In this document: piece by piece, positions 23,242 through 49,432 of the stretch
How positions within the stretch are numbered: position 1 is the first letter of the stretch
Layout of the letters: the number at the start of each line of letters is the position of its first letter
NCBI GenBank assembly: GCA_964646575.1
Contig: CAZYFT010000002.1
Location: forward strand, 4,459 to 68,458
DNA from: an uncultured Candidatus Saccharibacteria bacterium
GTDB lineage: Bacteria > Patescibacteriota > Saccharimonadia > CAILAD01 > GCA-016700035
Length of the DNA stretch: 64,000 bases
Direction: 5' to 3'
The notes under the pieces: generated by a model
What the model was told of the DNA's origin: nothing
What the model saw: only the letters and a program-made list of their open reading frames with translations
Databases searched by the model: none
Made by a program: the position numbers and the translations under genes

Positions 23242-23318
23242 GCGCTCGTAGCTCAGTTGGATAGAGCGTTGGTTTGCGGTACCAGAGGTCGCAGGTTCGA
23301 ATCCTGCCGAGCGCACCA
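23242..23318 (+). tRNA. tRNA-Arg-like (anticodon reads GCG)
   Basis: Canonical cloverleaf with A20, C35, G36, discriminator A and encoded CCA. Anticodon loop TTGCGGT. A GCG anticodon is unusual for Arg, where ACG is expected. Confidence 0.7.
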
Positions 23319-23399
23319 TAATTATTTTCTTGTGAATTCGGGAGGGGAATGATCCTTTCTCGATCACACCAGAAAAGTCTGGTAAGTTCATGAGATCCC

Positions 23400-23865
23400 G
23401 CGTGTCCCAAATAGAGGAAGTGAGAGTTAACCGTACTCACGAAAGCGTAAGTCAGCCTTATAGAGTTGAACGACGACAGCCCTATAAGACGTCAAAGAAC
23501 TTCGCTGCACAGAGGATCGGCAGCTGTATCTGCCCTGCTGGGCTCGTAGAAGCTCGCGGCGGATGCAGCCGTTTCGCACCTTAATACATGCAACAATTCT
23601 GGGATCAGCAACGCCCAGACGTTCGGCGACAAGGCCACCCCAGCTTCGGCTTAGGTGTGCTCACAGGGATCGGGGATCCCCTGCATGTCGAACGAATAAC
23701 CCCGGCATTCCTGTGATGCACACCACTGACACCTGCGGATTAGATACCCGCGCCGTCACACAAGGTGGTAAGGAGGAGTATCGTCCTCTGTTGGTAACCC
23801 AGCAACCGCGGAAGTACCAGCGAAACGTAGAGATTGGGGTGCCAGGACACCCCAATCTCGACCAA
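23400..23865 (+). other. GC-rich noncoding segment carrying scrambled 16S-rRNA-like sequence blocks
   Basis: Contains GGATTAGATACCC (universal 16S ~785), CCGTCACAC (~1400), CAGCAACCGCGGAAGTAC (vs CAGCAGCCGCGGTAATAC ~519), CATGTCGAACG (vs CATGCAAGTCGAACG ~55) and GCCCAGAC (~340), in non-native order. No credible ORF. Confidence 0.3.
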
Positions 23866-23937
23866 GCGCTCGTAGCTCAGTGGTAGAGGTTCAGCCTGAA
23901 AAACTGACGGTCGCAGGTTCGAATCCTGCCGAGCGCT
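23866..23937 (+). tRNA. tRNA-like gene, Phe-type anticodon loop CTGAAAA (GAA); possible pseudo-tRNA
   Basis: 5' 16 nt and 3' 28 nt are identical to the tRNA at 23242. The D-stem G-G and anticodon-stem C-A mismatches, T20, discriminator T and absent CCA argue against a standard tRNA-Phe. Confidence 0.45.
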
Positions 23938-23941
23938 CGAT

Positions 23942-24014
23942 ACCCCCGTAGCTCAGTGGCAGAGCGTCCGGTTCTTAACTCGGAAGGTTGCAAGATCAAT
24001 ACTTGCCGGGGGTG
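23942..24014 (+). tRNA. non-canonical tRNA-like gene (Lys-type CTT in an 8-nt anticodon loop)
   Basis: Acceptor ACCCCCG/CGGGGGT, a good D-arm, T-loop ATCAATA, and anticodon loop TTCTTAAC (8 nt) between the TCCGG/TCGGA stems. Confidence 0.4.
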
Positions 24015-24040
24015 CAAGGCAAATGTGAGCCTTAATCACA

Positions 24041-24111
24041 CGGGCTATAGCTCAGAGGTAGAGCTGCCAGCTGGGTGCTGGTGGTCACAGGTTCGAGTCC
24101 TGTTAGCCCGA
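24041..24111 (+). tRNA. tRNA-Pro (anticodon GGG)
   Basis: 71-nt cloverleaf with CGGGCTA acceptor, GCCAG/CTGGT anticodon stem, loop CTGGGTG, T-loop TTCGAGT, discriminator A and no encoded CCA. Confidence 0.65.
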
Positions 24112-24195
24112 CAACTGACTTCCACCCTCGTTGTTTTTGTAGTAGCGCCGCCAACGCTGCTCTCTGCTCGCAGAAAACAAGGAACGGGGAGTCAG

Positions 24196-24273
24196 GCGGG
24201 GGTAGCTCATGGGAGAGCAACTTGGGTGAAAGCCCGAGGAGGTACGTGGGTTCAAATCCCACCCCCTGCACCA
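24196..24273 (+). tRNA. tRNA-Ala-like gene (G3:U70) with aberrant anticodon arm
   Basis: GCGGGGG/CCCCTGC acceptor with a G3-T70 wobble, GTGGGTTCAAATCCCAC T-arm and ACCA end. The anticodon region CTTGGGTGAAAGCCCGAG cannot form a standard 5-bp/7-nt arm and contains no TGC/GGC/CGC. Confidence 0.45.
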
Positions 24274-24705: not shown

Positions 24706-24771
24706 CACAGTTTGCCCTCAGTCAACAGAATTAGTTATAGTGGCAATAAGATTTTAGTAAAAGGAAAAGCT

Positions 24772-25455
24772 ATGGCTACCACAAAAAACCCTCCTGTTGT
24801 TCCGGCTAGCACCTCAACAGCAACCGCGACAGTATCAAATTACCCCGGAGCCTTTGGTCTCTTTAAACCCAGCAGTCAGGCAATTCGACTAGCTTTTGTT
24901 CCGCTTCTCCTTATCTACGTTATTCTTTTTGCTATTGGCATCGTAATTGGGCTCTTCAGCGGCAACAATAAAGACCTGGCAGATTCACTTGGCAGTATCC
25001 TCAATATCGTCTCGCAAGTCATCACCATCCCGATGTTTTCGTTTATTATTCTCTACGCCGTCCGAGGCACCCGCAAAGAACTCCGCGAATCGTTTGATTA
25101 CGCCACTCAAAATATTTTGCGCTTCTTCGTAGCTAACCTACTGTCCGCACTTGCCGTAATAGGCGGGCTTATCCTACTGATCATCCCTGGAATCCTGATT
25201 GCGATGAAGTTCTCGATGACCAATTACATCTTGGTAGATAACCCAAAGATGAGTGGTACTGAAGCACTCTCCAGAAGCTGGGATATGACAAGGGGCCATA
25301 TGGGTAAAATTTTTGGCATCATTGGGGTTTCAATTCTCATGCTACTCCCAGTAATCACCATTGTAGGCATCATCGCTACCATTATTCTGCTCGTACTCTA
25401 CGCTGCAGCCATGCCGGTGCTCTACAACTACCTGGTTGGTAAACAGAAAGCTTAA
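24772..25455 (+). CDS. polytopic membrane protein of unknown function
   Basis: Start at MATTKNPP with an AAGGA RBS. 227 aa with six or more hydrophobic helices. Confidence 0.6.
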   Translation: MATTKNPPVVPASTSTATATVSNYPGAFGLFKPSSQAIRLAFVPLLLIYVILFAIGIVIGLFSGNNKDLADSLGSILNIVSQVITIPMFSFIILYAVRGTRKELRESFDYATQNILRFFVANLLSALAVIGGLILLIIPGILIAMKFSMTNYILVDNPKMSGTEALSRSWDMTRGHMGKIFGIIGVSILMLLPVITIVGIIATIILLVLYAAAMPVLYNYLVGKQKA

Positions 25456-27890: not shown

Positions 27891-27920
27891 AAAAAACGCC
27901 CAATTGATGGGCGTTTTTTA
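27891..27920 (+). terminator. bidirectional intrinsic terminator ACGCCCA-ATTGA-TGGGCGT flanked by A6/T5
   Basis: Perfect 7-bp stem with A/T runs on both sides. Lies between convergent genes. Confidence 0.7.
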
Positions 27921-28178
27921 ATGCTTACGAAATCGCTTCCAGAGTAGCAGAGAAGCTACCGGTAACAGAGCGAGTAAAATCAGGAGTATCCACGCCAAGA
28001 TAGTGGGTGAGCATATTGGTGCAGAAGCACCGATCAGCTCACACTGAACACCCGTGCAGTCTATCGGCCCACTCTCACAGTTTTTAAAGTCATAGCTCCA
28101 CCATATTTGTGACATCACCCAAAACACGGGCACATAGCTTACAACAGTAATGAGATACGCTTTTTTGTGAGGCTTCAT
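27918..28178 (-). CDS. small membrane protein
   Basis: 86 aa with two hydrophobic helices. The start overlaps the upstream SBP gene stop. Confidence 0.4.
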   Translation of the reverse strand: MKPHKKAYLITVVSYVPVFWVMSQIWWSYDFKNCESGPIDCTGVQCELIGASAPICSPTILAWILLILLALLPVASLLLWKRFRKH

Positions 28179-29569
28179 TTTCTCGGGTAACTTACAACAA
28201 TGTCGGTGGCTCGACGTTCGAGATTCTTAACCGCCAACTGTGGATCTAATCCTGAGAGCACGCTTACTGTAGCATCATAAAAGTACCCGTTCATTTCCTT
28301 ATCGTTGCCACGGTAAAACGTCTGGGCAGAACTTATTTGTGAGGCGAATGGACCGATCATCGCATCTCCATCTTGAGCACTAATAAGGTCTTTTCGACTT
28401 GTTGGCCTCAGCGTTTCTGCATTAAACTTCTTTTGATTGTCTTTGGTGGCTGCAAATCGAATAAAGTCCCAGGCTATTTCTGAGTTTGATGAATTTTTAT
28501 TTACCATCTCAACCCAGTATTGTGCAAAGTTTATCTCTTTCTGATCTTTAATTTGTGGAAGTTTAGCCATCTTAAACTCTAAGCCGGAATTAAACTGCTT
28601 TACCTCTGTAGCCTTAAATGGGTAATTTATCATCATCGCCACCTTACCTTCGGCAAACGCCTTCACTGTATAGCCAAGCGTATCCTGAAAAGCGTAGTTC
28701 TGCTTCTTAGGATTCGCAAAGCTCGTGTAATACTCCATTGCCTTAGCTCCAGAAGCGTAGCCGCTCGCATCTGGCTGGGCAAACGTGGCCTTGGTTGGTG
28801 GCTCATCCGTCATGCTCGCCCCATTCTGCAACATGAGCGCGGACTGGATGTCGACTGACTGATGCACAAACGGCGTACCCAATGCGGCCCCAGATTGAGT
28901 AATAGTTTCACCATCTTTCTTGGTGAGCTTACGGCTTATCTCCGTAAACTCATCCCAGTTTTTTGGAACTCCAACGTTTGCCTCCTTCAACAAAGCAGGA
29001 TTGTAGTACAGTCCAAGCGTAGAAACTCCGTACGTCACGCCGCGAATCTTACCGTCATACAATAATCTTTGCGTAGCCGCATCGACGAAAACATCCTTAT
29101 ATACCTTCTCTGTATACACCGTGTCTGGAGCTGGCGTAGAGTAATCTACATAGCGCGGCATCCAATCATTCAGTACAGAATATATGTCTGGCAAATTGCC
29201 TGTTTGAGCCGCCTGAGCTAGCTCGGCGTCGTAACTACCGTAGTCAATATCGCGTATCTCAATCTTTACGTTCGGATGAAGTTTTTGAAACTGATCAATA
29301 ATTGGCTGCATGTACCGAGCTTCATCCCATGTGCGCCAGTAGGTGAGAGTTACTTGTTTTGATTCATCGTACACGACACGACTTTCGCTATCAGCGGGAG
29401 CAAGAACAGCACCAAGCCCACTCTTATCTGATTGCGTGTCGGCTGGACGCGTAGCTAAATAAAGAAAGCCAGCTGCACCAAGTATGATAACAGCAACTGC
29501 GCACCAAAAAAGAATTCGCTTAAGCATTACAACTATTGTACCAAACCAAAAACGCCCCGAAGGGCGCAT
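28175..29569 (-). CDS. extracellular solute-binding protein (ABC transporter family 1, sugar-type), orphan
   Basis: N-terminal TM/signal, then an SBP_bac_1-like sequence (TLTYWRTWDE...KIEIRDIDYGSYDAELAQAA...). An alternative start lies at MLKRIL (29527). No permease is adjacent. Confidence 0.75.
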   Translation of the reverse strand: MRPSGRFWFGTIVVMLKRILFWCAVAVIILGAAGFLYLATRPADTQSDKSGLGAVLAPADSESRVVYDESKQVTLTYWRTWDEARYMQPIIDQFQKLHPNVKIEIRDIDYGSYDAELAQAAQTGNLPDIYSVLNDWMPRYVDYSTPAPDTVYTEKVYKDVFVDAATQRLLYDGKIRGVTYGVSTLGLYYNPALLKEANVGVPKNWDEFTEISRKLTKKDGETITQSGAALGTPFVHQSVDIQSALMLQNGASMTDEPPTKATFAQPDASGYASGAKAMEYYTSFANPKKQNYAFQDTLGYTVKAFAEGKVAMMINYPFKATEVKQFNSGLEFKMAKLPQIKDQKEINFAQYWVEMVNKNSSNSEIAWDFIRFAATKDNQKKFNAETLRPTSRKDLISAQDGDAMIGPFASQISSAQTFYRGNDKEMNGYFYDATVSVLSGLDPQLAVKNLERRATDIVVSYPRK

Positions 29570-29593: not shown

Positions 29594-29971
29594 TTAAAAC
29601 TGCGCGAGTACGAAGTTTACAATTGCGTAGCCGAGGAGTGCCACAACAATACCAACCACCGCATAAAGAATGGTGTCTTTAGCAGCCTGGGTGTTTTTAG
29701 AATCTCCACCGGAAAGAACATAACGCAAGCCGCCAACTACCAGCATAATAACTGCAGCAACGCCTACGATGTAGAGTAGTATGTTCGTAACACGCCCCAC
29801 AGCCTGCGGGACTGTTAGGGGACTAGCCGGACCACACTCTACGCCACTGTTCAGACCACCAGCTGGATCACCACACGCAGCCAAAGCACGCCCTGGTAGC
29901 TGTAATACTGCGGAGACAGCAGATGCGCCCAAGACCGATACCTTTAAAACTGAGTTGCTAGTAAACTTCAC
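29594..29971 (-). CDS. VirB2/TrbC-like pilin-type small membrane protein (paralog 1)
   Basis: 125 aa: signal peptide, hydrophobic helix, short polar loop (GGDSKNTQAAKD), and a second hydrophobic helix to the C-terminus. This is the TrbC/VirB2 topology. Confidence 0.55.
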   Translation of the reverse strand: MKFTSNSVLKVSVLGASAVSAVLQLPGRALAACGDPAGGLNSGVECGPASPLTVPQAVGRVTNILLYIVGVAAVIMLVVGGLRYVLSGGDSKNTQAAKDTILYAVVGIVVALLGYAIVNFVLAQF

Positions 29972-29986
29972 GAAAACCTAGGATTT

Positions 29987-30364
29987 TTACGCTGCAAACT
30001 GACCGAGTACAAAGTTAACAATCGCATAGGCAAGAAGGGCTACAACGATACCGATAACCGCATAAAGAATGGTGTCTTTAGCAGCCTGGGTGTTTTGTGA
30101 GCTACCACCAGAGAAGATGTAGCGGAAACCACCAACGATAAGCATAATCACAGCAACTACACCGATCACAAAGAGCATAGTGTTGGTGATTGTCTGAATG
30201 TTTGCCACGAGATCAGTCTGCTGATCGTCGCCCTTAGCGGCACTAGCGCCTTCGTTAATTCCGCCTACTGCGGCTGAAGCGTGTCCCGCAAGTGAAGCTG
30301 CCACTACGGTATTTCCAGCCAACACGAGTGAACCTTTTTTAAGTAAATCTTTTGCATTACGCAT
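29987..30364 (-). CDS. VirB2/TrbC-like pilin-type small membrane protein (paralog 2)
   Basis: 125 aa. The C-terminal 45 aa are near-identical to paralog 1 (NTQAAKDTILYAVIGIVVALLAYAIVNFVLGQF), including an identical 38-nt DNA stretch. Confidence 0.55.
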   Translation of the reverse strand: MRNAKDLLKKGSLVLAGNTVVAASLAGHASAAVGGINEGASAAKGDDQQTDLVANIQTITNTMLFVIGVVAVIMLIVGGFRYIFSGGSSQNTQAAKDTILYAVIGIVVALLAYAIVNFVLGQFAA

Positions 30365-30507
30365 GTTGTTTATTGTCTCCTTGACTACTAATGATAGCTA
30401 AGTGGGCGAGTGCACACTACTAGGCACATTCTACTGCAAGGAGAGATGTATCAGCAAGCATTATGGGCAAAATTCTTATGCTTATTTTATAAACAGAAGT
30501 AGGTGGC

Positions 30508-31068
30508 CTAGCGGAACTGTGCACTAACAAAGCTAATAATTGCTGTACCCAAAAGCGCCACGCCAACACCAATCACCGCATACAAAATTGCATCTTTTGC
30601 GGATTTTGTCTTGCCCGGGTCTCCAGCTGAAACCACGTACAAGATTCCAGAGACTATTACCATAATTACAGAAGCTGCACCAATAACCCACATGAAGAGC
30701 TGAATGCCCGAATTGACCACGCTCTGAACGTTTGTGGCCCCAGCAACAACTGGCAAGAAAAAATCTACTAACGCTCGAGCGATAATAGCAATTACAAAAC
30801 CGATTACCGTGTAAATAATCGACTGAATAGCCATCTTGGTTCGATCAGGACGACCGGCAGAAATTACAAACATAAAACCTGAGTACACAATCATGACAAC
30901 GCCAACTACACCAACCACCCAAAGCAAGAAAGTGAAAAGATTATTCACCAACTGGGGAAGTGTGGCTGGGCCATTATTAAATTGTGCCGGCTTATTGGTA
31001 GGGAGGGGAAGATTAGTTGCCTCCGCAGCCACAAAAAGCTTAAGACCAAGTTGATGCAAAACGCCCAT
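30508..31068 (-). CDS. tandem-duplicated pilin-like membrane protein (two helix-loop-helix units)
   Basis: 186 aa with two repeats of the hydrophobic-loop-hydrophobic unit (PDRTKMAIQSIIYTVIGFVIAII / PGKTKSAKDAILYAVIGVGVALLG). Confidence 0.5.
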   Translation of the reverse strand: MGVLHQLGLKLFVAAEATNLPLPTNKPAQFNNGPATLPQLVNNLFTFLLWVVGVVGVVMIVYSGFMFVISAGRPDRTKMAIQSIIYTVIGFVIAIIARALVDFFLPVVAGATNVQSVVNSGIQLFMWVIGAASVIMVIVSGILYVVSAGDPGKTKSAKDAILYAVIGVGVALLGTAIISFVSAQFR

Positions 31069-31072
31069 AATA

Positions 31073-31933
31073 TTACCCCGTTATCACTCTACCAATTAAG
31101 TTAAATATCAAACTCACCGAAGCAACTCCAAGTAATCCAATTACCGCATACGTAATAATCTTGCGAGCAGACTGAATAGCTTGTGGGTTTCCGGCAGCGG
31201 TCATCATTCTGATACCTCCCACAATTATCATCGTTACAGCCAATGCGCCTCCAAGGAACTGTATGTACTGCCATACCGCAACAATAAGCTCGAGGATGGT
31301 GTTCTGGTCAAAGTTATTTAGGTCTACACCCAAGAAGCGTCCACCACCAGTAACGCCGATAAGGTCTAGCGTTACACGAGCAGCAAAAAAGAGCGCAATG
31401 CTAGAAGCAGCTAACGTGATGCGTTTCTTACCAGCTTTCAACGCCTCTGGGGAGGCTCCACCGGTAATAACTTGCACCATGCCCAGGCCGATCATAATTG
31501 CAAAAACAAGCACCCCAATATTTAAAATGTAGTTTGTAAGGTTCTCTACAATAGATTCAATTGCAGTTTGATTATTGCCTCCAGTGCAAAGTGTAGAAAC
31601 GAAGCCGCTACTAATAATTTGCCCATCAGCCTTAATATCATTACAAGTGCCTTTAACGGACTGGGGGTTGCTGAGCCTCTCATTTTCGGCAGCCGTACTT
31701 GTACCATTGCCAATTGGCTCACTTCGAGCGGGACCTTTAGTTCCTGGAGGAAGATTCTCAACACATAACGTCCCCCGTGTTGTGTCTTGCCGAGTTGTAC
31801 CAGCAACACCTCCCGTAAGCGTACAGGGTTTACCGGCATCATTTTGTTGATCGGCATAAGCAACCGGAAGGGTATATACATGTAGACTAATAACCAAAAG
31901 AATAAGGAATAAGTACGCGAGGCGGCTTTTCAT
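31073..31933 (-). CDS. secreted domain fused to two pilin-like helix-loop-helix units
   Basis: 286 aa: signal peptide, ~150-aa Cys-containing extracellular region, then two units ending QAIQSARKIITYAVIGLLGVASV. Confidence 0.5.
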   Translation of the reverse strand: MKSRLAYLFLILLVISLHVYTLPVAYADQQNDAGKPCTLTGGVAGTTRQDTTRGTLCVENLPPGTKGPARSEPIGNGTSTAAENERLSNPQSVKGTCNDIKADGQIISSGFVSTLCTGGNNQTAIESIVENLTNYILNIGVLVFAIMIGLGMVQVITGGASPEALKAGKKRITLAASSIALFFAARVTLDLIGVTGGGRFLGVDLNNFDQNTILELIVAVWQYIQFLGGALAVTMIIVGGIRMMTAAGNPQAIQSARKIITYAVIGLLGVASVSLIFNLIGRVITG

Positions 31934-31975
31934 GTCCCTTATTATAAGCGGGTTTGGTATAATTTCGGTAGGGTA

Positions 31976-34900
31976 ATGAATATTCTTTCCAAAAAACTGA
32001 ATATATTTCAGCAGGGGGCGCTGTTTGGCGTCCTGCTTATTCTTTCATTTTTGACATTTTCACAAAAAGCCGCTGCCGCCTCTGCTCCGGGCAAATGGCT
32101 GGATCCCCAAGGTGGACAGTGCCAATGGCTAAATGCAGCGCAGATTAGGTGTGCACCGGTTGCCGGGGCAGCTGTTGCAAACTATGCAGATTACTATTTT
32201 GACCCGCAATCCACCCTCGCTGCTGGGCACGCTGTATACCGAGTAAATGGAAATGATGAAAATCTTTCAGATTGGGGATACATCCATATCCTCAGCGATT
32301 ACGAAGTAGCCCAAATAAGTAACAGTCCAACAGATGCCGTTGGTGGCTACGAGCAAAAACCCATCCAAGATTCTGATAATTTCGCCAATACATCTGATGA
32401 AGAAATTAATGGGCGTCTAGTTTGTGGTCCGGGTAATACATCTGCAGATTGTACGTTGGGCTTTACCAAGAACACAACTCAGTCAAAAAACCCTCTTTCT
32501 GAAAAAGACTACCTCGCCGCACTTACTATTGTCTCCAATGGAGGAAGTGAGTTCTTTAATGGAAAAGCCGCGGAAGAAGACTGCGCCGAGGATGCTGGCT
32601 CATTGGGTTTTGTGTTGTGTCCAATTTTAAAAACAACACGTAATGCTGTGACAGCCCTCATCGGGGACGGGACTGGCAAGGGCTTCTTGGTGGAGTTACT
32701 CACTATCCGACCACTAAGCTCCACAAACACTCCAGAACTTTACAATGGCTGGCAAGCTGTGAGAAATATCGCTCTCGGGCTGTACATATTAGTGTTTGTT
32801 TTAATTATCTTTGGTAATGGAATCGGTTACGACCCCTACACAATTAAGCGAGCATTACCTCGATTGGCAGCCGGCGTTGTCTTAACATTCGCCTCATGGT
32901 GGATCATGCAGACACTTGTAGATCTTTCGAACCTTGTGGGTAATGTTATTCCCGCCTTTGTTGCTCAAATTTCCGGAAATGCCGGAATTGCCGACTATGC
33001 AATCGATCTGAATCCTGCCCTTGCCTTAAGTTCCGTAATCCTGCTCATTGTGGTTGCGTTTGTCGCCCTAGGCGCCTTGCTGGTTGGAATTGCTGGTTTA
33101 ATTATGCGCATAGTTATAATTTATGCGCTTGTCCTCCTAGCGCCCGTTGCATTCATAGCCTGGGTATTACCAAACACTGAAAGCATCTTTAAAAAATGGT
33201 GGAAAAACCTCGTTAAGGTACTCATGATGTTTCCAATAGTTACAGGAATGCTATCACTCTCCTTGTTCTTCCAGACTGTTCTGTTAAACACTCAAACCGA
33301 TGCAGCTGGAAATAGTAATGGTGCCGGCGGGGCAGCAGCGAACTCGGTAACCGGAATAGTAGGTATGCTTGCACCACTCATCGCAATCATCATGATTCCT
33401 AAGACCTTTAAGTGGGGTGGAGAGGCTTTCGCTGCGGCGGCTGGATACATGGCCGGAAAGGCCAGTGGGGCTGCCGACAAAGTTGCAAACGCGCCAAAAA
33501 CTGTTGGTGGCAAAGCTGCCGGGAGCGCAAAAGAACGAGCACTTGCAAGTGACCGTGTAGCTCGTATGACTGGCGGCATGGCTTCCAACAGGCTAGGTCG
33601 GCTGGCTGGCGGAAAAGCTGCTATGCGAGCTAGTGGTAGAGCCAGAGGTAGGGTTGTGAGTGAGGCCGAAAGTCTAACGAAGAATATGACAAACGACCAG
33701 CTCGAGAAAATTGCTGCAACCGGGACCACAGAAGAAAGAATCGCAGCAATTGGTCAGCTCGCAAAGCGAGGTGACCGTAAAAAACTTGCTAGCCTTGGAT
33801 CAAAAGATGGAAAAACCGCAAAGGCCTACAATGAAGCAAGTAGTAGATATGCTGGTGATTTTGGAAAGAATGCAGACCTTCGAAGGATTGGTGGCAAGCT
33901 AACTAATACGAGCGACCTGTCGGTCGAAGATGCAGCAAACCTCAACCAAGACGCGCTGGCAGTTGGCCTGGCAACTGGATCTATTTCCTACGCAACAGCC
34001 AAGTCCATGTATGAAAGCGATAAGGTTAAAGCATCATTGTCTCCTCAAAAAATGCACGACCTCACAACTTATCTAAGCGGGGCAGGCTACAAGGACTCTT
34101 CAGGTAAGCCTATTCAGGTGCAGGGTAAGAATAACCGTTCAGACACCGATACTGTGATCGGAACAAGAACTACCGCTGATGGTCGAGGTCAGAAGATTAC
34201 AGTAAATGGATCCAGCTCACTAAATACGCAACTCAAGGCAACTGCCGTACAGGCAAAAGTTCAATACGATGATCATATGAATGGAGTTGTTGACGCCAGC
34301 GGGAATCGAGTACCGATGAATGTTAACCCCGAATCTGTAGCTCTAGATCCTAACACTACAAGCATTGAAACACCTCCTGTAGTTAAGGCTGCACCGAGTG
34401 GCTCTATACCCTACAGGGCAGGTAAGGCTGTTGGGCAGGTACGCAGCCAAATGGGCCAAGGAGGTTACGTGGCAGTGCCCGGAGGAAACACCACCAATAC
34501 TGGGGCCCCAACTCAGCAGGCAAGCCCAGCGCCACCACCGCCGCCACCACCAAGTGGAGGGGCACCAACTTACACCACACCGGCCGGAGCACCTAGGTAT
34601 ACGACGAGCGGTACGCCTGTACCTCCACCTCCAACCGGTAACGTTCCAGTTTGGAGCAACCCTACACCGCCACCGCCAAGTGGAACCTCAGGCAGCACAA
34701 CACCACCTCCATACACGGGTCCAGCGGCGCCATGGCAGCCAGCCCCAAGTTCACAAACCCCACCTCCACCACCAAGTGGAGGGGCGCCTACCAGCACGAG
34801 CGGTGGAGGCACAGTCATAAACAATGTCACCAACGAAAATTCAACGACAAATAACAACTCAACTACCAACAACGTAAAAACCGTTCTCAACAACAACGGC

Positions 34901-35188
34901 ATACCGAGTTCGATTGCGCTTGGTGCAGCCACGCAGCTTGGAAGTGCCAAAAATCGCTTCGGAGCAGGATCAGCTGAACACGACGGCCTAGCCGGTATCG
35001 AGAGTAAGCTCAATGATCTGGGTCGTATGATTCAGTCCGGCTCACTCAGCCAAACTCGATTGCGTGAAAACATCCGTGACATCCATCGTGATATCGATGA
35101 TCTCCCGCCCGGAGCACATGACCAGCAAGATAACCTACGTGGCGTACTCAATAACATCGAACGCAATGCCACCGACGACGAGGCATAG
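31976..35188 (+). CDS. VirB6/TrbL-like polytopic T4SS channel protein with long Pro-rich C-terminal extension
   Basis: 1070 aa: signal peptide, ~250-aa exodomain, five or six TM helices (res ~260-480), then K/A-rich repeats and PPPPPPSGGAPT-type Pro-rich repeats. This is the architecture of Gram-positive VirB6 homologs. Confidence 0.5.
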   Translation: MNILSKKLNIFQQGALFGVLLILSFLTFSQKAAAASAPGKWLDPQGGQCQWLNAAQIRCAPVAGAAVANYADYYFDPQSTLAAGHAVYRVNGNDENLSDWGYIHILSDYEVAQISNSPTDAVGGYEQKPIQDSDNFANTSDEEINGRLVCGPGNTSADCTLGFTKNTTQSKNPLSEKDYLAALTIVSNGGSEFFNGKAAEEDCAEDAGSLGFVLCPILKTTRNAVTALIGDGTGKGFLVELLTIRPLSSTNTPELYNGWQAVRNIALGLYILVFVLIIFGNGIGYDPYTIKRALPRLAAGVVLTFASWWIMQTLVDLSNLVGNVIPAFVAQISGNAGIADYAIDLNPALALSSVILLIVVAFVALGALLVGIAGLIMRIVIIYALVLLAPVAFIAWVLPNTESIFKKWWKNLVKVLMMFPIVTGMLSLSLFFQTVLLNTQTDAAGNSNGAGGAAANSVTGIVGMLAPLIAIIMIPKTFKWGGEAFAAAAGYMAGKASGAADKVANAPKTVGGKAAGSAKERALASDRVARMTGGMASNRLGRLAGGKAAMRASGRARGRVVSEAESLTKNMTNDQLEKIAATGTTEERIAAIGQLAKRGDRKKLASLGSKDGKTAKAYNEASSRYAGDFGKNADLRRIGGKLTNTSDLSVEDAANLNQDALAVGLATGSISYATAKSMYESDKVKASLSPQKMHDLTTYLSGAGYKDSSGKPIQVQGKNNRSDTDTVIGTRTTADGRGQKITVNGSSSLNTQLKATAVQAKVQYDDHMNGVVDASGNRVPMNVNPESVALDPNTTSIETPPVVKAAPSGSIPYRAGKAVGQVRSQMGQGGYVAVPGGNTTNTGAPTQQASPAPPPPPPPSGGAPTYTTPAGAPRYTTSGTPVPPPPTGNVPVWSNPTPPPPSGTSGSTTPPPYTGPAAPWQPAPSSQTPPPPPSGGAPTSTSGGGTVINNVTNENSTTNNNSTTNNVKTVLNNNGIPSSIALGAATQLGSAKNRFGAGSAEHDGLAGIESKLNDLGRMIQSGSLSQTRLRENIRDIHRDIDDLPPGAHDQQDNLRGVLNNIERNATDDEA

Positions 35189-35190
35189 TT

Positions 35191-36030
35191 ATGGGGCAGT
35201 ATAAAGTCCCTCAAAACGTAGAGAGTGAAGATAGACTCCTAGGCCCCTTAACGATGAAGCAATTCATCTACGCTATCATTGGTCTTGGGTGGGGATTCCT
35301 TATTTGGCGTATTCTCTCACCGGGAGGCACGGCTGCAATCCCCATTATGCTTCTGCTCATTGTGCCGGTTTCTGGTTTTATGCTTCTCTTGGCATTCGGC
35401 AAAAGGGAAGAGCAGAGTTTTGAGAATTATCTCATTGCCCTCATTCGTTTTAGTGTCGTACCGCGCAAGCGCATTTGGCTGAAAGACGACTTTAAGGGTG
35501 AAGTGATTATTGATGCACCACCTCCGCCAAAACCCACAACTCCAACTAAAGAAGATATTGCGCATGTCCACAGCCGCTTACAACAACTCTCACTAGTTGT
35601 AGACACGCGTGGACACGCCAAGACTCCAGATGTTCAGCTGGCCGACCAAACAAATCGGGCTGCGGAATTTTCTCAGCGCGTATTTACACCTCCGGAACTC
35701 CAAAAACCTATCTTAGAAGGGGGAGTGCAAGAACAAGATGACGTATTAGCAACAACAGAAGCAACAGCCGCTCAAGCGCAAAAAGTTGATGAGCTACTAC
35801 AAAACCAAGAGTACTCCATACGCGAAGAGGCCATGAAAAAGATGACTCAGGCCGTCGAAAATCCCGAAACTCAGGCCGCCGAAACCCCTACACAAACCTC
35901 CCAGCCACCAGCTGATAATGCTATACTGAAAAAGGTTATGGATGCACCTCACCTAAGTGTTGCTCAGGTAGCCCAAGTGGCTAATCGTGGGCAGCTCGCA
36001 CAAGGTCAGGAAATCCAAATCCAACAATAA
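35191..36030 (+). CDS. VirB3/PrgI-like small membrane protein with extended C-terminus
   Basis: Two N-terminal TM helices (FIYAIIGLGWGFLIW... IPIMLLLIVPVSGFMLLLAF) and a position immediately upstream of virB4. Confidence 0.4.
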   Translation: MGQYKVPQNVESEDRLLGPLTMKQFIYAIIGLGWGFLIWRILSPGGTAAIPIMLLLIVPVSGFMLLLAFGKREEQSFENYLIALIRFSVVPRKRIWLKDDFKGEVIIDAPPPPKPTTPTKEDIAHVHSRLQQLSLVVDTRGHAKTPDVQLADQTNRAAEFSQRVFTPPELQKPILEGGVQEQDDVLATTEATAAQAQKVDELLQNQEYSIREEAMKKMTQAVENPETQAAETPTQTSQPPADNAILKKVMDAPHLSVAQVAQVANRGQLAQGQEIQIQQ

Positions 36031-36177
36031 AACGTATAAAAACCAAGACAGAAGACCCTCTAAATAACAAAATCTTTGAAGGTTGCTGTCTTTTTTTGTT
36101 ATGATGATATATTCGTCACTCAACAGCAATACAGTGATGAGGGTGTTCAAAAGTAAAAGAGGGAGAGAGAAGTTCGC

Positions 36178-37098
36178 ATGCCACAGGAGGCTGCCAAAAC
36201 TCCACAACAAATTGAATATGAGAAATCGATCACTCCTACTAAGGAGTCGAAAGATCAGCGCACCAGCACGCAAAACCACCTGATGTTTACCGAAATTAAG
36301 GATGGCATCGTTGTAATGCGTGATGGCTCTTTGCGTATGGTCGTACTTGCGAGTGCGCTCAACTTTGACCTTAAGAGCCCGCAAGAACAGGATGCGATCG
36401 AATATGCCTACCAAGGATTTTTAAATGGTCTGCATTTTCCGATTCAAATTATCGTACGCTCTCGCAAACTCGAACTTGATGGCTACCTGGAAAATCTTGA
36501 AGTCTTACAGGCAAATCAAGAAAATCCACTTTTAGCCGGACTAATGGAAGATTATATTTACAATATTCGTGGGCTTTTGGAGCAAGTAAACATCATGAAT
36601 AAAGAGTTTTATGTCGTTGTGCCATACTACTTGGATGTCGCGTCAAAAAAGAAAGATAATGCCGGATTTAAGCTCGCCAGCCTCTTTAAAACTAACACCG
36701 ACACTATGCAAACCACGGAGATGTTTGAGCAACGCAAACGTGATCTTATTCAGCGCACTAATCTTGTTGCGCAAGGGTTGGCACAGCTTGGTATCCGGGC
36801 AGCCGTACTCTCAACCCAAGAAATTACCGAGCTCTTCTATACTGCCTACAACCAGGAAGAAGCTATTAATCAAAACTTAGTGGACATCGAACAAATGACT
36901 ACGCCAGTTGTAGAACGCGGCGATGCAGATCCAGAGCCATATACTCAGTCTTCCTACACCGAGCCAGTGCCAGATGATTTATATTCTGCGGCCGCTCAAG
37001 CCCAACAACCCGCAGCCCCAACTGAGGGAACTACTCCAGTTCAACAGCCTGCAGCTCAGCAACCACCACAAAATCCATTGATTGGAGGAGGGGTATAA
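36178..37098 (+). CDS. T4SS-associated hypothetical protein (306 aa) translationally coupled to virB4
   Basis: TAATG stop-start overlap with virB4, different reading frame, Gln/Pro/Ala-rich tail. No catalytic motif. Confidence 0.5.
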   Translation: MPQEAAKTPQQIEYEKSITPTKESKDQRTSTQNHLMFTEIKDGIVVMRDGSLRMVVLASALNFDLKSPQEQDAIEYAYQGFLNGLHFPIQIIVRSRKLELDGYLENLEVLQANQENPLLAGLMEDYIYNIRGLLEQVNIMNKEFYVVVPYYLDVASKKKDNAGFKLASLFKTNTDTMQTTEMFEQRKRDLIQRTNLVAQGLAQLGIRAAVLSTQEITELFYTAYNQEEAINQNLVDIEQMTTPVVERGDADPEPYTQSSYTEPVPDDLYSAAAQAQQPAAPTEGTTPVQQPAAQQPPQNPLIGGGV

Positions 37099-39005
37099 TG
37101 GCGCGCAAACCAAAAGTCGATCCCGCTCAACAGGCCGCCATTGATATGGCTGCAGCTCAGCAACAAGAAGCTGAACGCGCCTATCGCGAGGGTATTCTTA
37201 CTCTGCGTGACATTATTGCACCAAGCTCGTTTACCATCGAGAATAATTACCTCATTATTGGCACTCGCTATGTGCGCACATTGTTTGTGTACGGCTATCC
37301 GCGCACCCTATTTACCGGTTGGCTCTCGCCAATTATCAACCTCGATGAGGTTATTGATATTTCGCTCAATATCATGCCGGTTGAAAGTCGTGTAGTACTT
37401 GAGAACCTCAAGAAAAAAGTAGGTCAACTCGAAGCCTCTGTGCAAATTAACGCCGAAAAAGGTAAGATTCGCGATCCAGGACTAGAAGCTGCCATTGGTG
37501 ACGCCGAAGAACTTCGCGACAAGCTCCAGGTAGGTGAAGAACGCTTCTTCCGTTTTGGGCTTTACATCACGCTCTACGGAAAGGATATTGAGGAACTCGA
37601 TCTTATTCAACGCAAAATTGAATCCATCCTCGGAACAAGCCTCGTCTACACAAAACCTGCTAGCGTACAGATGGAACAAGGTTTCAACTCGACACTCCCA
37701 ATTGGCACCGATCAGCTGGGTATTTACCGCAACATGAACACGGGATCACTCTCAACTAGTTTTCCGTTTACTACCGCCGAACTCTCTCGCAATGAAGGGG
37801 TTATGTATGGCTTAAACCGCCACAACAATGGACTCGTGCTGTTTGATCGTTTCAGTCTCGAAAATGCCAACATGGTAGTGTTTGCAAAGTCTGGTTCCGG
37901 TAAGAGCTTTACCGTAAAACTCGAGTGCTTGCGCTCGCTCATGCTGGGTGCAGAGATCATTATTATCGATCCAGAAAACGAATACCGCACGCTATGTGAC
38001 GCAGTGGGCGGGAGCTACATTCATTTGTCACTCGCCAGTAGTACTCGTATTAACCCATTTGATATCCCAACCACAGTTGATCCCGAAGAAGCCGACAACG
38101 CGCTGCGCGCAAACATCATCATGCTACACGGTTTGCTCCGTTTGATGTGCGGTAAGCTTGAGCCAGCAGAAGAAGCAGACCTGGATGTTGCCCTTATTAA
38201 TACCTACGCCCAAAAAGGCATTACCAACGATCCGCTAACACATCGCAGCCAGCCACCTGTGATGAGCGATCTGTATAACACCCTCATTACCATGGGTGGA
38301 ACCGGCCCAGCAATTGCCGCCCGTCTGCGTCGCTACACCGAAGGCACATTCTCTGGTATTTTCTCTCAGCAATCAAACGTCCAGCTCGATAATAAATTTG
38401 TCGTCTTCAATATTCGCGACCTCGAAGATGAGTTACGTCCAATTGGTATGTATATTACGCTGAACTATATCTGGAACCGTGTAAAAACCGATCGACGTAA
38501 GCGCATTCTAGCCGTAGACGAAGCCTGGCAGCTTATGAAGCACCCTGACTCGGCATCATTTATGTTCTCAATCGCTAAGCGCGCCCGTAAGTATTATCTA
38601 GGACTCACAACCATCTCGCAGGACGTGGAGGACTTCTTAAACGACCGCCTGGGACGTGCTGTAGTAAACAACAGCTCATTGCAGGTCCTTCTAAAGCAAG
38701 CACCATCCGCCGCCGATGTTGTTGCGGAAACATTCAAGCTAACAAGTGAAGAAAAAAACCGCCTAACTCAGTTCCCGGTAGGAGAGGGGCTATTCTTTGC
38801 TGGATCTAACCACGTGGTTATTCGCATTTTGGCGAGCCCCATGGAAGAGCAGCTCATCACCACTAACCCGCAACAACTTCTCGAACGACAAATGCGCGAC
38901 CAAGAAGAAGCCCAACTACAGGCCGCAGAACCAGCCCCGGAATTGCAACAAACAGCTCCAGAACCACCGGCAACATACCAGCAGCCAGGAGGGCAGGTTA
39001 GCTAA
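37098..39005 (+). CDS. virB4: VirB4/TrbE/CagE-family T4SS ATPase
   Basis: Walker A FAKSGSGKSFT, Walker B ILAVDEAWQL and the VirB4 N-terminal domain (LIIGTRYVRTLFVYGYP). 635 aa. Confidence 0.9.
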   Translation: MARKPKVDPAQQAAIDMAAAQQQEAERAYREGILTLRDIIAPSSFTIENNYLIIGTRYVRTLFVYGYPRTLFTGWLSPIINLDEVIDISLNIMPVESRVVLENLKKKVGQLEASVQINAEKGKIRDPGLEAAIGDAEELRDKLQVGEERFFRFGLYITLYGKDIEELDLIQRKIESILGTSLVYTKPASVQMEQGFNSTLPIGTDQLGIYRNMNTGSLSTSFPFTTAELSRNEGVMYGLNRHNNGLVLFDRFSLENANMVVFAKSGSGKSFTVKLECLRSLMLGAEIIIIDPENEYRTLCDAVGGSYIHLSLASSTRINPFDIPTTVDPEEADNALRANIIMLHGLLRLMCGKLEPAEEADLDVALINTYAQKGITNDPLTHRSQPPVMSDLYNTLITMGGTGPAIAARLRRYTEGTFSGIFSQQSNVQLDNKFVVFNIRDLEDELRPIGMYITLNYIWNRVKTDRRKRILAVDEAWQLMKHPDSASFMFSIAKRARKYYLGLTTISQDVEDFLNDRLGRAVVNNSSLQVLLKQAPSAADVVAETFKLTSEEKNRLTQFPVGEGLFFAGSNHVVIRILASPMEEQLITTNPQQLLERQMRDQEEAQLQAAEPAPELQQTAPEPPATYQQPGGQVS

Positions 39006-42000
39006 TGTTTCGCCTGGAGGGTGACTCACAGGACCCGCTCACTAGCTCTCGACACTACAAAGATATTAAGAGTGCCGGTAAGCAGTCCAACACTGGACCT
39101 GGATCGATGGCTGACAAGGCAGCGAACGGGCATATAGACAGCCTTTCATCGGCCGGCAAGAAGGGCGGTGAAGCTGCTGCAAAAGGCAGCCCTAGTGCTA
39201 GTGGTGCTGCGTCGAAAGGTGCTTCCAGTGCCGGTGCTAGCGCCACAAAAGAAGCCGGAAAAGCCGCGGCCGATGCGGCGGCTAAAAAATCCATTTCTAA
39301 GGCCGTAGGAAAATCGCTCGGTAAAGGCCTTAATGTAAAAGGTGATCTTGATGATGTAAAACGCACCGCACAAGAAGATGGTGCGGCTGCTGCGGCTGCT
39401 GCGGCAGGTCTAAAAGCTGCCGAAACAGTCGCCTCAAAAGTACCAATCGCATCGCAAGTCGCAACAGCCATTCGGGCTGGCCAAGCTGCCCTGGCTAAAG
39501 TTGGTATCAATATTAAGGATCAGTACATTATGTACATACTCTTATTGGTGCCAATTCTTGCCCTCGTGCCAGTGATAGTTTTTGCACTTATTGTGTTTTT
39601 CGCCTGGAAAAATCCACAAGCTGTCCTCAAGCTTTCATTTACCAATTTTAAAACTTTTGTTGGTGCAGCCCAGTCACTCGTCATCGAAAACGGAGGTGCC
39701 TCAAAGATGGCTTACGAAGTTGAGGCAGGGAGCAATCGTGCAGTCGCAGCTCCGGGTGATGCAGCAAAACCAGAGGAAGGCACGTACGAATACAAATTGG
39801 CTCAAATTGACTGGGAAAAGGCAAAATATCAAACCCTCCCACTTGATAGCCGCTGCGTGATCAAAACAAAAAAAGTTGTTTCTGTTCTCGACGGAAAAGA
39901 GAGGTCGATTATTGAGTCTGTAGAGCTTAAAACTAATCCTGGTAGGGACCTCCAGGGGGTAGCTCGGTCCAACTGTATTAACAATACCTATCCAATTTGG
40001 AATACTATGATGCGCTCACAATTTGTGCGTGATGGCGTCAATAAAAATCTCAATGTTCGCTACGCATATGCCGAACCGCAAGACTCAACTACACTCGACG
40101 AATCTTCCGATGAATTCTCAACCACCCTCCGCGACAAAACTCTCACCAGAATATGGAATCGTGGCCAAGCTATCAATAAACCCATTCAATCCACACCTGA
40201 AGAGGTTACGGCAAATGATGAAGAAGTAAAACGCTTCTTCACTAACACCCGAAAAGTTCAAAAGTACGCAGAAGAAACTAACATCGCAAAATATAGCAAT
40301 GAAGTAATTACTTGTGCTGATATGTATGTCCCGAAAGGGGATAGCTACTATCAAAAAGATATCGACAAAATGAATCATGACCTGGCATGCGGCATTAACC
40401 CCAAAGATATTCTGCTATATACGACTAGTCCACCCGAAAGCTCGACAAATGATCCTGATCCATCAATCGCCATCAAGCCAAAACGAGCAGCTCTCAATGT
40501 AGTTTGTGATCTCTACTATAATCTTCTTGCCCCAGATAGCGATTATGCTCCAGCAGTAGATAAGTACCGACAAAAAGTAAAAGACCGCATCAACTCTGCA
40601 GCTGTTGCTGGCTGGCAAGCCATGACATATGCCGATACACACCAAAAAAGATTTATCGACCTTAAAGAGTTGGGGGGAGACTTTTATAAAATTTCCGGTA
40701 TACAGCAAGGTCAAGAATACAATTATGCCCTAGACTACCGAAAGAATGGAGTTGCGCTCGAACCTGATGCTATCTCCCGCATTGTTGGCTACTACAACAA
40801 GCAAGCAGATGCCATTCCAGCCATCCAGCAAGAAAAACAATATCAAGATGCATTAAATCTTATCTTCACATACGTAACTTCAGGGGGCGACGCCTCTCCT
40901 TGTGATGCAGCTCGAGATACTGGCGAATTCGATAACACAACCAGCAACGACCCTCAGAGAGACGCAAAAATTAATACTTTTTATAGCGATGTGTATCCTG
41001 CATTCAAAAAGGCAATCGCCGGAATAGACTTCTACGCCAACCCATCACAAAGCAAATCCGTAAGCCAAATTTATACAGACCTCACATACGAAGATCTTCG
41101 CTTCCGATTAATTCGCATTGAATCTAACGTTGCAACCGCCGGAACAGAAGATGGTCCTCAAAACTTTAACCGTATGAACTTCGGCATGAAAGCCTACACA
41201 AACGCTTTTACCCTTTCGATGGGTGGAAATTTCCTTACACAAAATGAGGCTATTAGCCGCGATGAATCGACTCGGGTTGCAAGATACTATGATGACAAAA
41301 CAAAGGGGATTGCTTGGCGCTTCTTCAACCTTGATAACCCCGGCTCATTTGCAAGTAGGCTTGCCGTAGCATCTACCGATAAGCCCCAAAATATACCTGG
41401 AAATATAACATCGACCATCGCATACGTCATGAACCCAATTAGAAATGCTGCGGGAGAAAATGGTACCCTTACAGCATTTCTCACGGGTGAGAGCCGTGTT
41501 GCTTCCGCTAGTTCAGTCTACGATTCTTCAAACTTAAAGCTAGACCCGGCAGGTATGCCCGAAGCCTTCAATCAGATCAATCCAATTGAGAATGCGCGCT
41601 ACATTGAAGGTGTCAAGAAAAATAACCCAACTCTCGCCACCGAACTCGCTGGCTACGATCAGTGCTTTAAAGAGTTTATTCCAAGCCGGTTCCATCTGCT
41701 GAATCCACCTCCTGACAAAGTAGATCTCTACAAAAACGTATGTACGCCACTCCTAGACAGCACTGCCACGCGAGATCCAAATAGTCTCATTCTCCGCTAC
41801 CGAGCCTATCACTTTCATATGCTCCAAGCTGATGCACTCGTATATTTGTCAGATCCTAATAAGGAAGATCCCAACTTCAGTGCGCCAGAAGGCGGAAGTA
41901 CAACAAATCCTGTTGCTGCCACTCCAGGCGGTGGAACACCCACTAACCCAAGTGGCGATACCTCAGCATTGCAATGCCCACCAGGAACTACCGACGCGGG

Positions 42001-42421: not shown

Positions 42422-42424
42422 TCT

Positions 42425-45146: not shown

Positions 45147-45419
45147 TTAGCCAATACGTATAAATATTTTTTCTAGTTTTTGACCGGTCTTCTTTACGAT
45201 TTCGCGTTCTATCTGAATTTTACGCATACGAATTTCACTAGCCTCAACTGGATGACCAACAGTTATACGTAATAAACCCTCGTTAAAACTCACCGAATCA
45301 ACAGTTACTCCAGACCGTCTTTTTATAATCTCTTTAACCATCTTAAAAAACTGCAAGATATCAAACTGCGCATCCAAGTTCTTACGTGACAAGCTGTCGC
45401 CAATTCTTTCAAAACTCAT
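45147..45419 (-). CDS. small protein downstream of recF (DUF721/DciA-like position)
   Basis: 90 aa. 4-nt overlap with the recF stop. Conserved gene-order position only. Confidence 0.4.
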   Translation of the reverse strand: MSFERIGDSLSRKNLDAQFDILQFFKMVKEIIKRRSGVTVDSVSFNEGLLRITVGHPVEASEIRMRKIQIEREIVKKTGQKLEKIFIRIG

Positions 45420-46468: not shown

Positions 46469-46476
46469 CGATCCTC

Positions 46477-47574: not shown

Positions 47575-47909
47575 GAGCTGGTCCTTTCTTTAATCTTTAA
47601 TATATATGGAAATGGTAGTAATGGGTGTTGTGGAAACTGGGGAGAAGTAGTTTTTAGAAGCTCTAGACCTCGAGAAAAATGCCCCCAAGGTGTGTGTGGA
47701 TGGTGTGTGCATACTGGGTCTGGATGCCGTGGGGATAAGCTGGTGATTGTGGAGAACGGAAGAGGGGGTAGGGATAAGATGTGGAGAATTTTGATGGTAA
47801 ACCACAATTTGCCAACACTTTTTCCGCAACTTTTCCACGAGGTTATCCGCATGTTGTCCACAGGCAAACTGTGGACAAAAACCGAAATTGTTCAGCACCT
47901 TATGCATTA
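47575..47909 (-). promoter_or_regulatory. oriC-type region (dnaA-dnaN intergenic) with DnaA boxes and AT-rich unwinding element
   Basis: TTGTCCACA, TGTGGACA, TTTTCCACG, TGTGGAGAA (x2) and TGTGTGGATGG are DnaA-box-like 9-mers. AATCTTTAATATATATGG AT-rich stretch. Confidence 0.55.
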
Positions 47910-49316: not shown

Positions 49317-49357
49317 ACTCACCACTCCTTCACATAGCTTTATCTGTATACTACTAG

Positions 49358-49432
49358 TTTTCCACAGGTCTGCCAAGTATTTATCCACATATCACCCACA
49401 ATATTCTGAGGAGCTGTGGATATGTGGATACG
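49358..49432 (+). promoter_or_regulatory. DnaA-box cluster upstream of dnaA (second origin module and dnaA autoregulation)
   Basis: TTTTCCACA (49358), TTATCCACA (49381), and TGTGGATAT/TGTGGATAC (49416, 49424) on the other strand. Confidence 0.6.

Follow-up and report, generated by a model that had tools for sequence, protein, structure and literature searches.

The window analysed here, a 64,000-nucleotide stretch of contig CAZYFT010000002.1, has its closest genome loci in metagenome-assembled genomes (MAGs) of Candidatus Saccharibacteria. Our subject is an array of four genes at positions 29594-31933, an interval filled exactly by four consecutive minus-strand open reading frames (ORFs), G1 to G4 (Table 1), which a preliminary description of the sequence had proposed to be pilin-like. 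The genes are separated by spacers of 4 bp (G4-G3), 143 bp (G3-G2) and 15 bp (G2-G1), and together they encode six helical-hairpin units: two in G4, which also carries a head domain, two in G3, and one each in G2 and G1.

All four proteins pass the gathering cut-off of PF18895 (T4SS_pilin, 26.6 bits) in a scan with Pfam hidden Markov models (HMMs), at 43.7 bits for G1, 47.2 for G2, 74.1 for G3 and 65.4 for G4. The pilin-like nature of the genes is borne out by these scores, in the sense of the VirB2/TrbC-related pilins of type IV secretion systems (T4SSs) rather than of type IV pilins. Two separate PF18895 matches each in G3 and G4 confirm the tandem hydrophobic-loop-hydrophobic units that had been described for the third and fourth genes. 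A domain HMM built from the window places the hairpins at residues 37-108 and 114-185 of G3 and at 125-196 and 213-284 of G4, and finds no further match among the remaining ORFs of the window. NF045849, a family of pilin-like proteins of Mycoplasma integrative and conjugative elements (ICEs) with a cut-off of 40 bits, is matched by G3 at 51.6 bits; G2 falls just short at 38.9, and G1 and G4 are below the cut-off.

A signal peptide followed by two hydrophobic helices with a short charged loop can be read from the sequences and from the secondary structure of AlphaFold2 (AF2) models, and the -3/-1 rule points to putative AxA-like cleavage sites in G4 (...VAYA/D), G1 (...ALA/AC) and G2 (...ASA/A). 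In G1 the signal-peptide-like N-terminus (...RALA-AC) leads into a variable segment with a cysteine pair, C33 and C46, and then into a VirB2-like hairpin. Codons 29-33 of G1 (29873-29887, ...ALAAC) can be read either as an AxA site for signal peptidase I or as a lipobox. All orthologues of the G1 type keep Cys33 and another cysteine 13 residues on, and the latter suggests a disulfide. The AF2 model of G3 has helices at 37-69, 74-104, 114-146 and 151-184, with a mean confidence (pLDDT) of only 60.6. That of G4, with a mean of 66.7, has an N-terminal signal helix, a small beta-rich head and two helix pairs, 124-157/162-192 and 210-245/250-285. The signal peptide of G4 spans approximately residues 1-27 and the head about 95 residues with four cysteines (C37, C57, C97 and C116) arranged as two pairs; the secreted head domain reported for this gene thus stands, though calling it Cys-rich was generous. 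The isolated head has no match in Pfam.

Gene conversion between two old paralogues

G1 and G2 agree at 63 of 125 residues over the whole protein and at 66% over the hairpin domain. Their C-terminal 45 residues had been called near-identical, which is somewhat overstated (37 of 45), and their N-terminal halves do differ as described, G1 having the Cys pair and G2 none. The exact repeat that they were said to share over 38 nt is real and occurs at 29659 and 30058 only; the string quoted for it has 39 nt, and the identity reaches 40 nt. This tract codes for (K/Q)NTQAAKDTILYAV, which covers the loop between the two helices and the first part of helix two, a segment that we take to face the lumen by analogy with solved conjugative pili. 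Across the alignable C-terminal 72 codons the proportion of synonymous differences between the two genes (pS) is 0.67, near saturation, but a stretch of 12 codons in a row does not differ at all. The p value is 0.002 for this 12-codon identity when synonymous states are permuted and 2e-5 for the 40-nt run when codon columns are shuffled, so that the shared stretch is conserved beyond its flanks. Because synonymous sites outside the run are saturated, the duplication must be old and the run a local anomaly.

Comparison with relatives indicates how the anomaly arose. In orthologues from five loci (L009, L011, L016, L017 and L018) the block carries several synonymous changes, and its nucleotides are therefore unconstrained across lineages. 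In L017, a close sister lineage, both paralogues have ACT/CTC/TAC/GCA at codons where both window paralogues have ACC/CTT/TAT/GCG; G1 of L017 also has the G2-type GTTATC (V-I, a V-to-I change), and its exact run with G2 is 35 nt long, with borders unlike those in the window. When the G1-G2 quartet of the window and L017 is considered, the block contains four of the five "concerted" sites and not one of the 27 "orthologous" sites. Block identity is 62-88% in more distant genomes, with runs of 6-26 nt. These patterns support recurrent, lineage-specific gene conversion between G1 and G2 over short tracts of about 35-40 nt, and the concerted synonymous changes in L017 uphold the gene conversion that had been suggested. 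Such conversion would keep the lumen-loop segment of the two proteins identical.

Two other histories of the pair can be weighed against these data. The identity could reflect selection on the nucleotides themselves, such as an RNA-level regulatory or binding site in both mRNAs; the block does lie within the most conserved peptide of the family (AAKDTILYA), and an identity run is found in several genomes. We consider this very unlikely, given the many synonymous changes among the five orthologous loci, the joint change of paralogues within a genome with different tract borders, and the merely partial identity of the block in most other genomes. A recent tandem duplication followed by rapid divergence of the N-terminal halves, the second process proposed in the preliminary description, would account for the equal length of 125 aa, the 15-bp spacer and the 66% identity over the hairpin, but it is hardly credible when the 72 alignable codons are near saturation outside the run. 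Moreover, the G1 type (signal peptide ending ...AAC and a Cys pair) and the G2 type (no Cys) are separate orthologue classes in L010, L011, L020-L025 and L028, relatives whose G3 is only about 50% identical, and the paralogous DNA match is 77% in the window and in the sister MAG L007 alike.

The number of G1/G2-like single-hairpin genes varies from two to four among relatives, and this part of the array accordingly expands and contracts. Both types are present twice in L020; L010 and L024 each combine a single G2-type gene with two of the G1 type.

Fused hairpins and mosaic divergence

Within G3 the two hairpins share 33% identity, and within G4 34%, values low enough to make these genes old joins of divergent units and not recent internal repeats. 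The second hairpin of G3 resembles G1 and G2 (48-50% identity) more than it does the first. The gene order, in which a head with two hairpins is followed by two hairpins and then by single-hairpin genes, is kept within the clade (L007, L010, L023 and L024), and proteins of the two fused kinds are widespread: G3-like proteins of 171-215 aa make up 21 homologue clusters and G4-like proteins of 245-311 aa make up 27. Arrays in 80 metagenome loci usually contain 4-8 hairpin units. Domain clustering yields position-specific classes in a kept order, E-D-A-A-A-B, in most of these 80 arrays, and other clades have two-hairpin genes of other class make-up (DA, IH). A strict rule of six units per array was considered and dropped, as the 23 arrays that lie wholly inside their loci hold 4-8 units with a mode of 5. 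One-to-one assignment of the window hairpins in distant arrays by BLAST score failed beyond the close clade because the consensus-like domains of G1 and G2 out-score everything, and we do not claim that G3 equals a pair of 113-aa and 122-aa genes in L012-L015, though a tblastn match spans both.

Longer chains exist. A phmmer search with G3 retrieved 11,871 representative proteins at E <= 1e-3, and 143 of the 150 best representative homologues carry 2-8 hairpins per polypeptide, a ranking that favours multi-domain proteins and so shows the existence of such chains, not their frequency. We found no mention of multi-hairpin pilin polypeptides in the literature that could be searched, and those found in CPR (candidate phyla radiation) bacteria, with up to eight hairpins, are apparently undescribed so far. 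One homologue, P0069 (552 aa; L096, 1777-3435), is built of six hairpins, which fall into two triplets of near-identical repeats, and sits in an ordinary pilin array beside four other pilin genes. It belongs to a group with 5-8 tandem T4SS_pilin hairpins per polypeptide that also includes P0070, P0075, P0088 and P0207, while P0072, from Paceibacterota, has three.

Divergence was estimated between the window and L007 as the synonymous rate (dS) and the ratio of non-synonymous to synonymous rates (dN/dS; Table 1). G1 and G2 are 100% and 99% identical to their L007 counterparts at the protein level. DNA identity to L007 switches within the G3-G2 spacer: it is 72-84% towards G3 and G4 and jumps to 93-98% towards G2 and G1. 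So sharp a switch makes the locus a recombination mosaic with a single contiguous divergent block made up of G3, G4 and the VirB6-like gene; the shared divergence of these three genes as one cassette hints at a physical interaction between their products. The segments divergent from L007 are 24712-25455, 30448-34520 and 36178-37098. Against a baseline of 0.35-0.57, dS is 1.2-1.7 for the three genes of the block, the TraC-like gene and a 247-aa ORF, and only 0.10 and 0.22 for G1 and G2, a mosaic which indicates that divergent alleles were exchanged homologously inside the T4SS locus.

The array had been described as diversifying and as a possible source of variable adhesins. For the most part this is contradicted by dN/dS values of 0-0.075 in all four genes, but it remains apt for the G4 head. 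Within G4, dN/dS is 0.019 in the hairpins and 0.36 in head residues 28-60; the family alignment shows strongly conserved hairpins and a head with numerous indels, large ones in residues 28-60, and of the head cysteines only the second pair (C97/C116) is conserved. The head, as the only fast-evolving part, is a candidate determinant of host contact. A check for metagenome variation, which the preliminary description had proposed, revealed none: six independent metagenome contigs (L001-L006), all of them picked by exact G4 identity, carry the 2.5-kb array with 100% identity.

Interpretation of the array and its alternatives

The closest characterised counterpart is in another member of the Saccharibacteria, Southlakia epibionticum ML1, where a VirB6-like gene (SEML1_0013) is followed by six PF18895 genes (SEML1_0014-0019; 132, 185, 103, 126, 127 and 138 aa), Hsp20 (0020) and ComFC (0021) (Wang et al. 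2023, PMC10633639). Each of the six was scored essential for epibiotic growth by transposon sequencing (PMC10633639, supplementary tables), a result known for ML1 only. The likeness extends to layout. In both genomes the PF18895 genes diverge from a large VirB6/TrbL-like gene that neighbours PrgI, VirB4 and wall-hydrolase genes; Hsp20 and then ComFC come after the pilin genes, and the replication origin is close by (reviewed in PMC12857230). In the window an ABC-type solute-binding protein (SBP) gene and an 86-aa ORF intervene between the array and Hsp20. There are four pilin genes here as against six, and the first gene encodes 132 aa in SEML1_0014 but 286 aa in G4, with its 95-residue head and two hairpins. 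The second genes are nearly equal in length, 185 aa with a domain at 115-180 in S. epibionticum and 186 aa with one at 114-185 here. Although a domain is detected only at 115-180 of SEML1_0015, that protein is probably two-hairpin too, a feature of the 185/186-aa gene of which we found no mention in the searched literature.

T4SSs of this kind are already known from Patescibacteria, in which MPF-FATA-like (mating-pair formation class FATA) systems near oriC are accompanied by arrays of VirB2-like pilin genes (Quinonero-Coronel et al. 2025, PMC12102498). The surveyed arrays, abundant in Saccharimonadia, contain 2-11 tandem VirB2-like genes near virB4, compared with four here, and within-array identity averages 25% with a maximum of 54%, compared with 50% for G1-G2 (PMC12102498). 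The survey counts genes, not hairpins, and we found in it no report of the fusions, gene conversion or mosaic divergence seen here; it favours antigenic or host-range variation, a reading that finds no support in our data for G1-G3.

VirB2 and TraA pilins are helical hairpins processed by a signal peptidase and polymerised by VirB4-containing machines. The array proteins resemble VirB2 of Agrobacterium, TrbC of RP4 and TraA of F in being small precursors with a signal peptide, two hydrophobic helices and a short basic loop, in being encoded with VirB3, VirB4 and VirB6 homologues, and in a weak sequence similarity (PF04956, 27.6 bits for G2). They differ in that PF04956 stays below its threshold, the host is monoderm, several non-identical paralogues take the place of a single major pilin, and two-hairpin fusions and a head domain are present without a VirB5-type tip protein or a TraF-type cyclase. 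Mbov_0395/MMCAP2_0565 of the Mycoplasma ICE (NF045849) are likewise hairpin proteins of wall-less or monoderm MPF-FATA-type systems, but that family is an equivalog for ICE proteins, whereas the genes here are chromosomal and have no ICE or relaxase context. For the fusions there is a precedent outside secretion. The rotor c-subunits of V/A-type ATPases are helical hairpins that stand side by side and have repeatedly been concatenated into two- and multi-hairpin polypeptides; they share neither homology nor ATPase context with the array, yet they illustrate that fusion implies neighbouring positions.

We conclude, with a probability of roughly 0.8, that G1-G4 are the VirB2-like pilin module of a chromosomal, origin-proximal, Gram-positive-type (MPF-FATA-like) T4SS of Saccharibacteria, that they correspond to the essential SEML1_0014-0019 genes, and that G1 and G2 are old paralogues with a converted loop segment. 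virB4 lies 5 kb from the four tandem pilin genes, and recF, dnaN and dnaA occupy 45416-49388 (dnaA 47910-49388), approximately 10-13 kb from the array. By this account the precursors would be inserted through Sec and cut by signal peptidase at the AxA-like sites, leaving hairpins in the membrane with both termini outside, a topology that makes head-to-tail fusion possible. The VirB4 ATPase and a VirB6-like platform would extract and assemble them into a pilus or a wall-spanning conduit that touches the host bacterium. Each paralogue would have a non-redundant place, with fixed neighbours, in a single heteromeric structure, and the paralogues would not be interchangeable variants. We favour a heteromer because each S. 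epibionticum paralogue is essential, because the age and strong conservation of the classes speak against antigenic variation, and because different hairpins are covalently linked. G1 and G2, the most conserved units, are probably the bulk subunits, and G4, whose head alone evolves fast, is probably a minor unit that forms a tip or a contact.

Several observations weigh against this conclusion or parts of it. PF04956 (TrbC/VirB2, cut-off 27.9 bits) is missed by G2 by 0.3 bits, G1 scores 20.0, and G3 and G4 have no match, so that kinship to VirB2/TrbC pilins is supported through PF18895 only. No pilus has been seen for a Patescibacteria T4SS, and the literature calls one a possibility only (PMC12857230). 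The AF2 models of G3 and G4 are of low confidence (pLDDT 61 and 67). A Foldseek search of the PDB with the G4 model returned nothing but non-specific helical proteins, all at E > 0.2, and was uninformative on account of the low-confidence model and the plain helical-hairpin fold; a profile HMM of G1/G2 had no relevant match, and no pilin, among PDB sequences. Signal-peptide cleavage was judged by eye from the -3/-1 rule only, and LAAC in G1 resembles a lipobox. The low dS of G1 and G2 may reflect recent recombination and not stronger constraint, the six identical contigs owe their selection to exact G4 identity, and the bulk role of G1/G2 and the tip role of G4 are deduced. Domains as short as these do not resolve which of the six units corresponds one-to-one to which of the distant S. 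epibionticum genes.

Among the alternatives, type IV pilins (related to type II secretion systems), holins or unrelated small lipoproteins are extremely improbable. Small size, hydrophobic helices and the lipobox-like motif of G1 might suggest them, and the preliminary description had named holins and lipoproteins as readings that would overturn its own, but neither is what we find: all four proteins exceed the PF18895 threshold, and the array proteins have no PHROG match to holin or other phage families at E <= 0.01. G1-G4 also match none of the type IV pilin families of Pfam or NCBIfam, and the class III signal peptide, a short basic leader ending in G and followed by F/M-T-L-I/L-E (G/FTLIE-type), is absent from all four sequences. 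The context is a T4SS with housekeeping genes and not a lysis cassette. As for the lipobox ([LVI][ASTVI][GAS]C), G1 has L-A-A-C33, and position -3 in the G1 type is H or V in orthologues (AHAAC, SHAAC, AVAAC), H being atypical for such a motif, and G2, G3 and G4 have none. It is unlikely, though less remotely so, that the paralogues are interchangeable subunits serving antigenic or host-range variation, as has been proposed for the VirB2 arrays of Bartonella and Anaplasma. That reading has been offered for the arrays of 2-11 divergent VirB2 genes (PMC12102498), and it would suit the varying number of G1/G2-like genes, the dissimilar exposed N-terminal segments of G1 and G2 and the variable G4 head. 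It is at odds with paralogue classes that are kept across genomes under strong purifying selection, G1 and G2 being practically identical in the sister species, with the individual essentiality of all six S. epibionticum pilin genes, and with the conserved covalent joining of unlike hairpins, by which a 1:1 ratio is fixed; nor did the six metagenome contigs show variation, and no silent cassettes or invertible elements were seen.

A more serious competitor, though a doubtful one, is that the hairpins form a short oligomeric channel or ring of the T4SS core, embedded in membrane and wall like fused c-ring hairpins, with no extended pilus. Up to eight concatenated hairpins fit a closed bundle more easily than a long helical polymer, Gram-positive T4SSs are normally pilus-less (PMC10633639) and no pilus has been imaged, and a structure-based annotation of SEML1_0018 has the ECOD match "F1F0 ATP synthase subunit C". 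On the other side stand the relationship of the family to TrbC/VirB2 pilins, the secreted variable head of G4, which suggests reach past the wall, and multi-hairpin proteins such as P0069 that occur among single-hairpin genes in ordinary arrays.

Within the pilin-module reading, we tentatively put forward a stricter version: the Patescibacteria T4SS "pilus" might be an obligate heteromer of 5-7 distinct VirB2-like hairpins at fixed neighbouring positions, perhaps one of each per layer, with G4-type proteins supplying a host-recognition head. We liken this arrangement to known conjugative pili, which have five-subunit layers. It would explain why all paralogues are essential, why adjacent genes have repeatedly been fused into polypeptides of 2 to 8 hairpins, and why lineages exchange G3, G4 and the VirB6-like gene as one divergent cassette.

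Few machines have been shown to be essential for Saccharibacteria to live as epibionts, and the T4SS with its pilin array is one of them; although the locus is not new in kind, it provides constraints for a structural model. As hairpins are linked in pairs, and elsewhere in CPR in chains of up to eight, units joined in this way must be adjacent and have both termini on one side. The useful new details are short-tract conversion of G1 and G2, conserved two-hairpin and head-bearing subunits, the wide occurrence of multi-hairpin pilins in CPR, and the divergent G3-G4-VirB6 cassette. These constraints can be tested directly in S. epibionticum, which is genetically tractable.

Secretion-system genes and other features of the window

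Table 1. Features of the pilin array and the adjoining T4SS genes, with dS and dN/dS between the window and the sister MAG L007
Feature	Position	Strand	Description	dS	dN/dS
Terminator-like GC hairpin + T run	29552-29567	minus	27 nt past the G1 stop; pattern match alone		
G1	29594-29971	minus	125 aa, single-hairpin T4SS pilin	0.10	0
40-nt exact repeat, G1 copy	29658-29697	minus	Read as gene-conversion tract		
G2	29987-30364	minus	125 aa, single-hairpin T4SS pilin, Cys-less paralogue class	0.22	0.016
40-nt exact repeat, G2 copy	30057-30096	minus	Read as gene-conversion tract		
G3-G2 spacer	30365-30507	minus	143 bp, sole sizeable gap within the array		
G3	30508-31068	minus	186 aa, two fused hairpins, ~6-residue linker	1.6	0.037
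G4	31073-31933	minus	286 aa; signal peptide, variable head, two hairpins	1.18	0.075
VirB6/TrbL-like	31976-35188	plus	1070 aa, polytopic, Pro-rich C-terminal part; divergent from G4, 42 bp away	1.7	0.12
PrgI/VirB3	35191-36030	plus	PrgI 54.3 bits		
TraC-like	36178-37098	plus	306 aa	1.58	0.027
VirB4 ATPase	37098-39005	plus	TraG P-loop/AAA_10/DUF87		
VanY-domain protein	39005-42421	plus	1138 aa		
Wall hydrolase	42425-44335	plus	636 aa, lysozyme + M23 + GDSL; with the four genes above, rest of the T4SS operon (35191-44335)		
Neighbouring genes (ComFC, Hsp20, SBP, PrgI, VirB4)				0.35-0.57	

The 1070-aa protein has a weak TrbL match (E = 0.052), its truncated copy in L006 has a precomputed match to PF19590 (TrbL_3), and the position of the gene matches that of SEML1_0013. 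Its C-terminal part (33937-34519) is of low complexity, rich in Pro, Thr, Ser and Gly, and unalignable to L007 at the DNA level; perhaps this part serves as a rapidly evolving spacer, either extracellular or spanning the wall. The 636-aa hydrolase combines a GDSL lipase/acylhydrolase with a phage-tail-type lysozyme and an M23 peptidase, and is thus richer than the usual VirB1/PrgK-type enzyme. A scan of 20 larger ORFs of the window, which did not cover all smaller ones, revealed no relaxase or type IV coupling protein (T4CP) domain. The remainder of the window consists of housekeeping genes (ValRS, GroEL, PGM, FemAB and others), and a mobile-element or ICE context was rejected on the basis of these surroundings.

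Regulatory signals were sought around the array. The terminator-like hairpin past G1 likely marks the end of the pilin operon, though terminator-pattern sites in the region are no more numerous than expected from shuffled sequence; the same holds for matches to the promoter consensus, and the RNA fold of the G3-G2 spacer is not significant (z = -0.87). The 42 bp between the start codons of the divergently transcribed G4 and VirB6-like genes (31934-31975) contain TATAAT-like hexamers on both strands, which went unreported in the consensus promoter scan. With so short a gap and hexamers on both strands, the promoters of the two genes must overlap the neighbouring coding regions.

The 86-aa ORF downstream of the SBP gene (27918-28178, minus strand) has two hydrophobic segments and five Cys but no Pfam or NCBIfam match. 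It is 87% identical to its L007 counterpart at the amino acid level, with a dN/dS of 0.13, and is called as a gene in just one metagenome contig. Farther away, a tRNA cluster on the plus strand (23242-24273) includes two ARAGORN "tRNA-???" calls with four-base anticodons, ctta (23942-24015) and gaaa (24196-24273), between tRNA-Phe and tRNA-Pro; these may be mis-folded ordinary tRNAs or unusual tRNAs.

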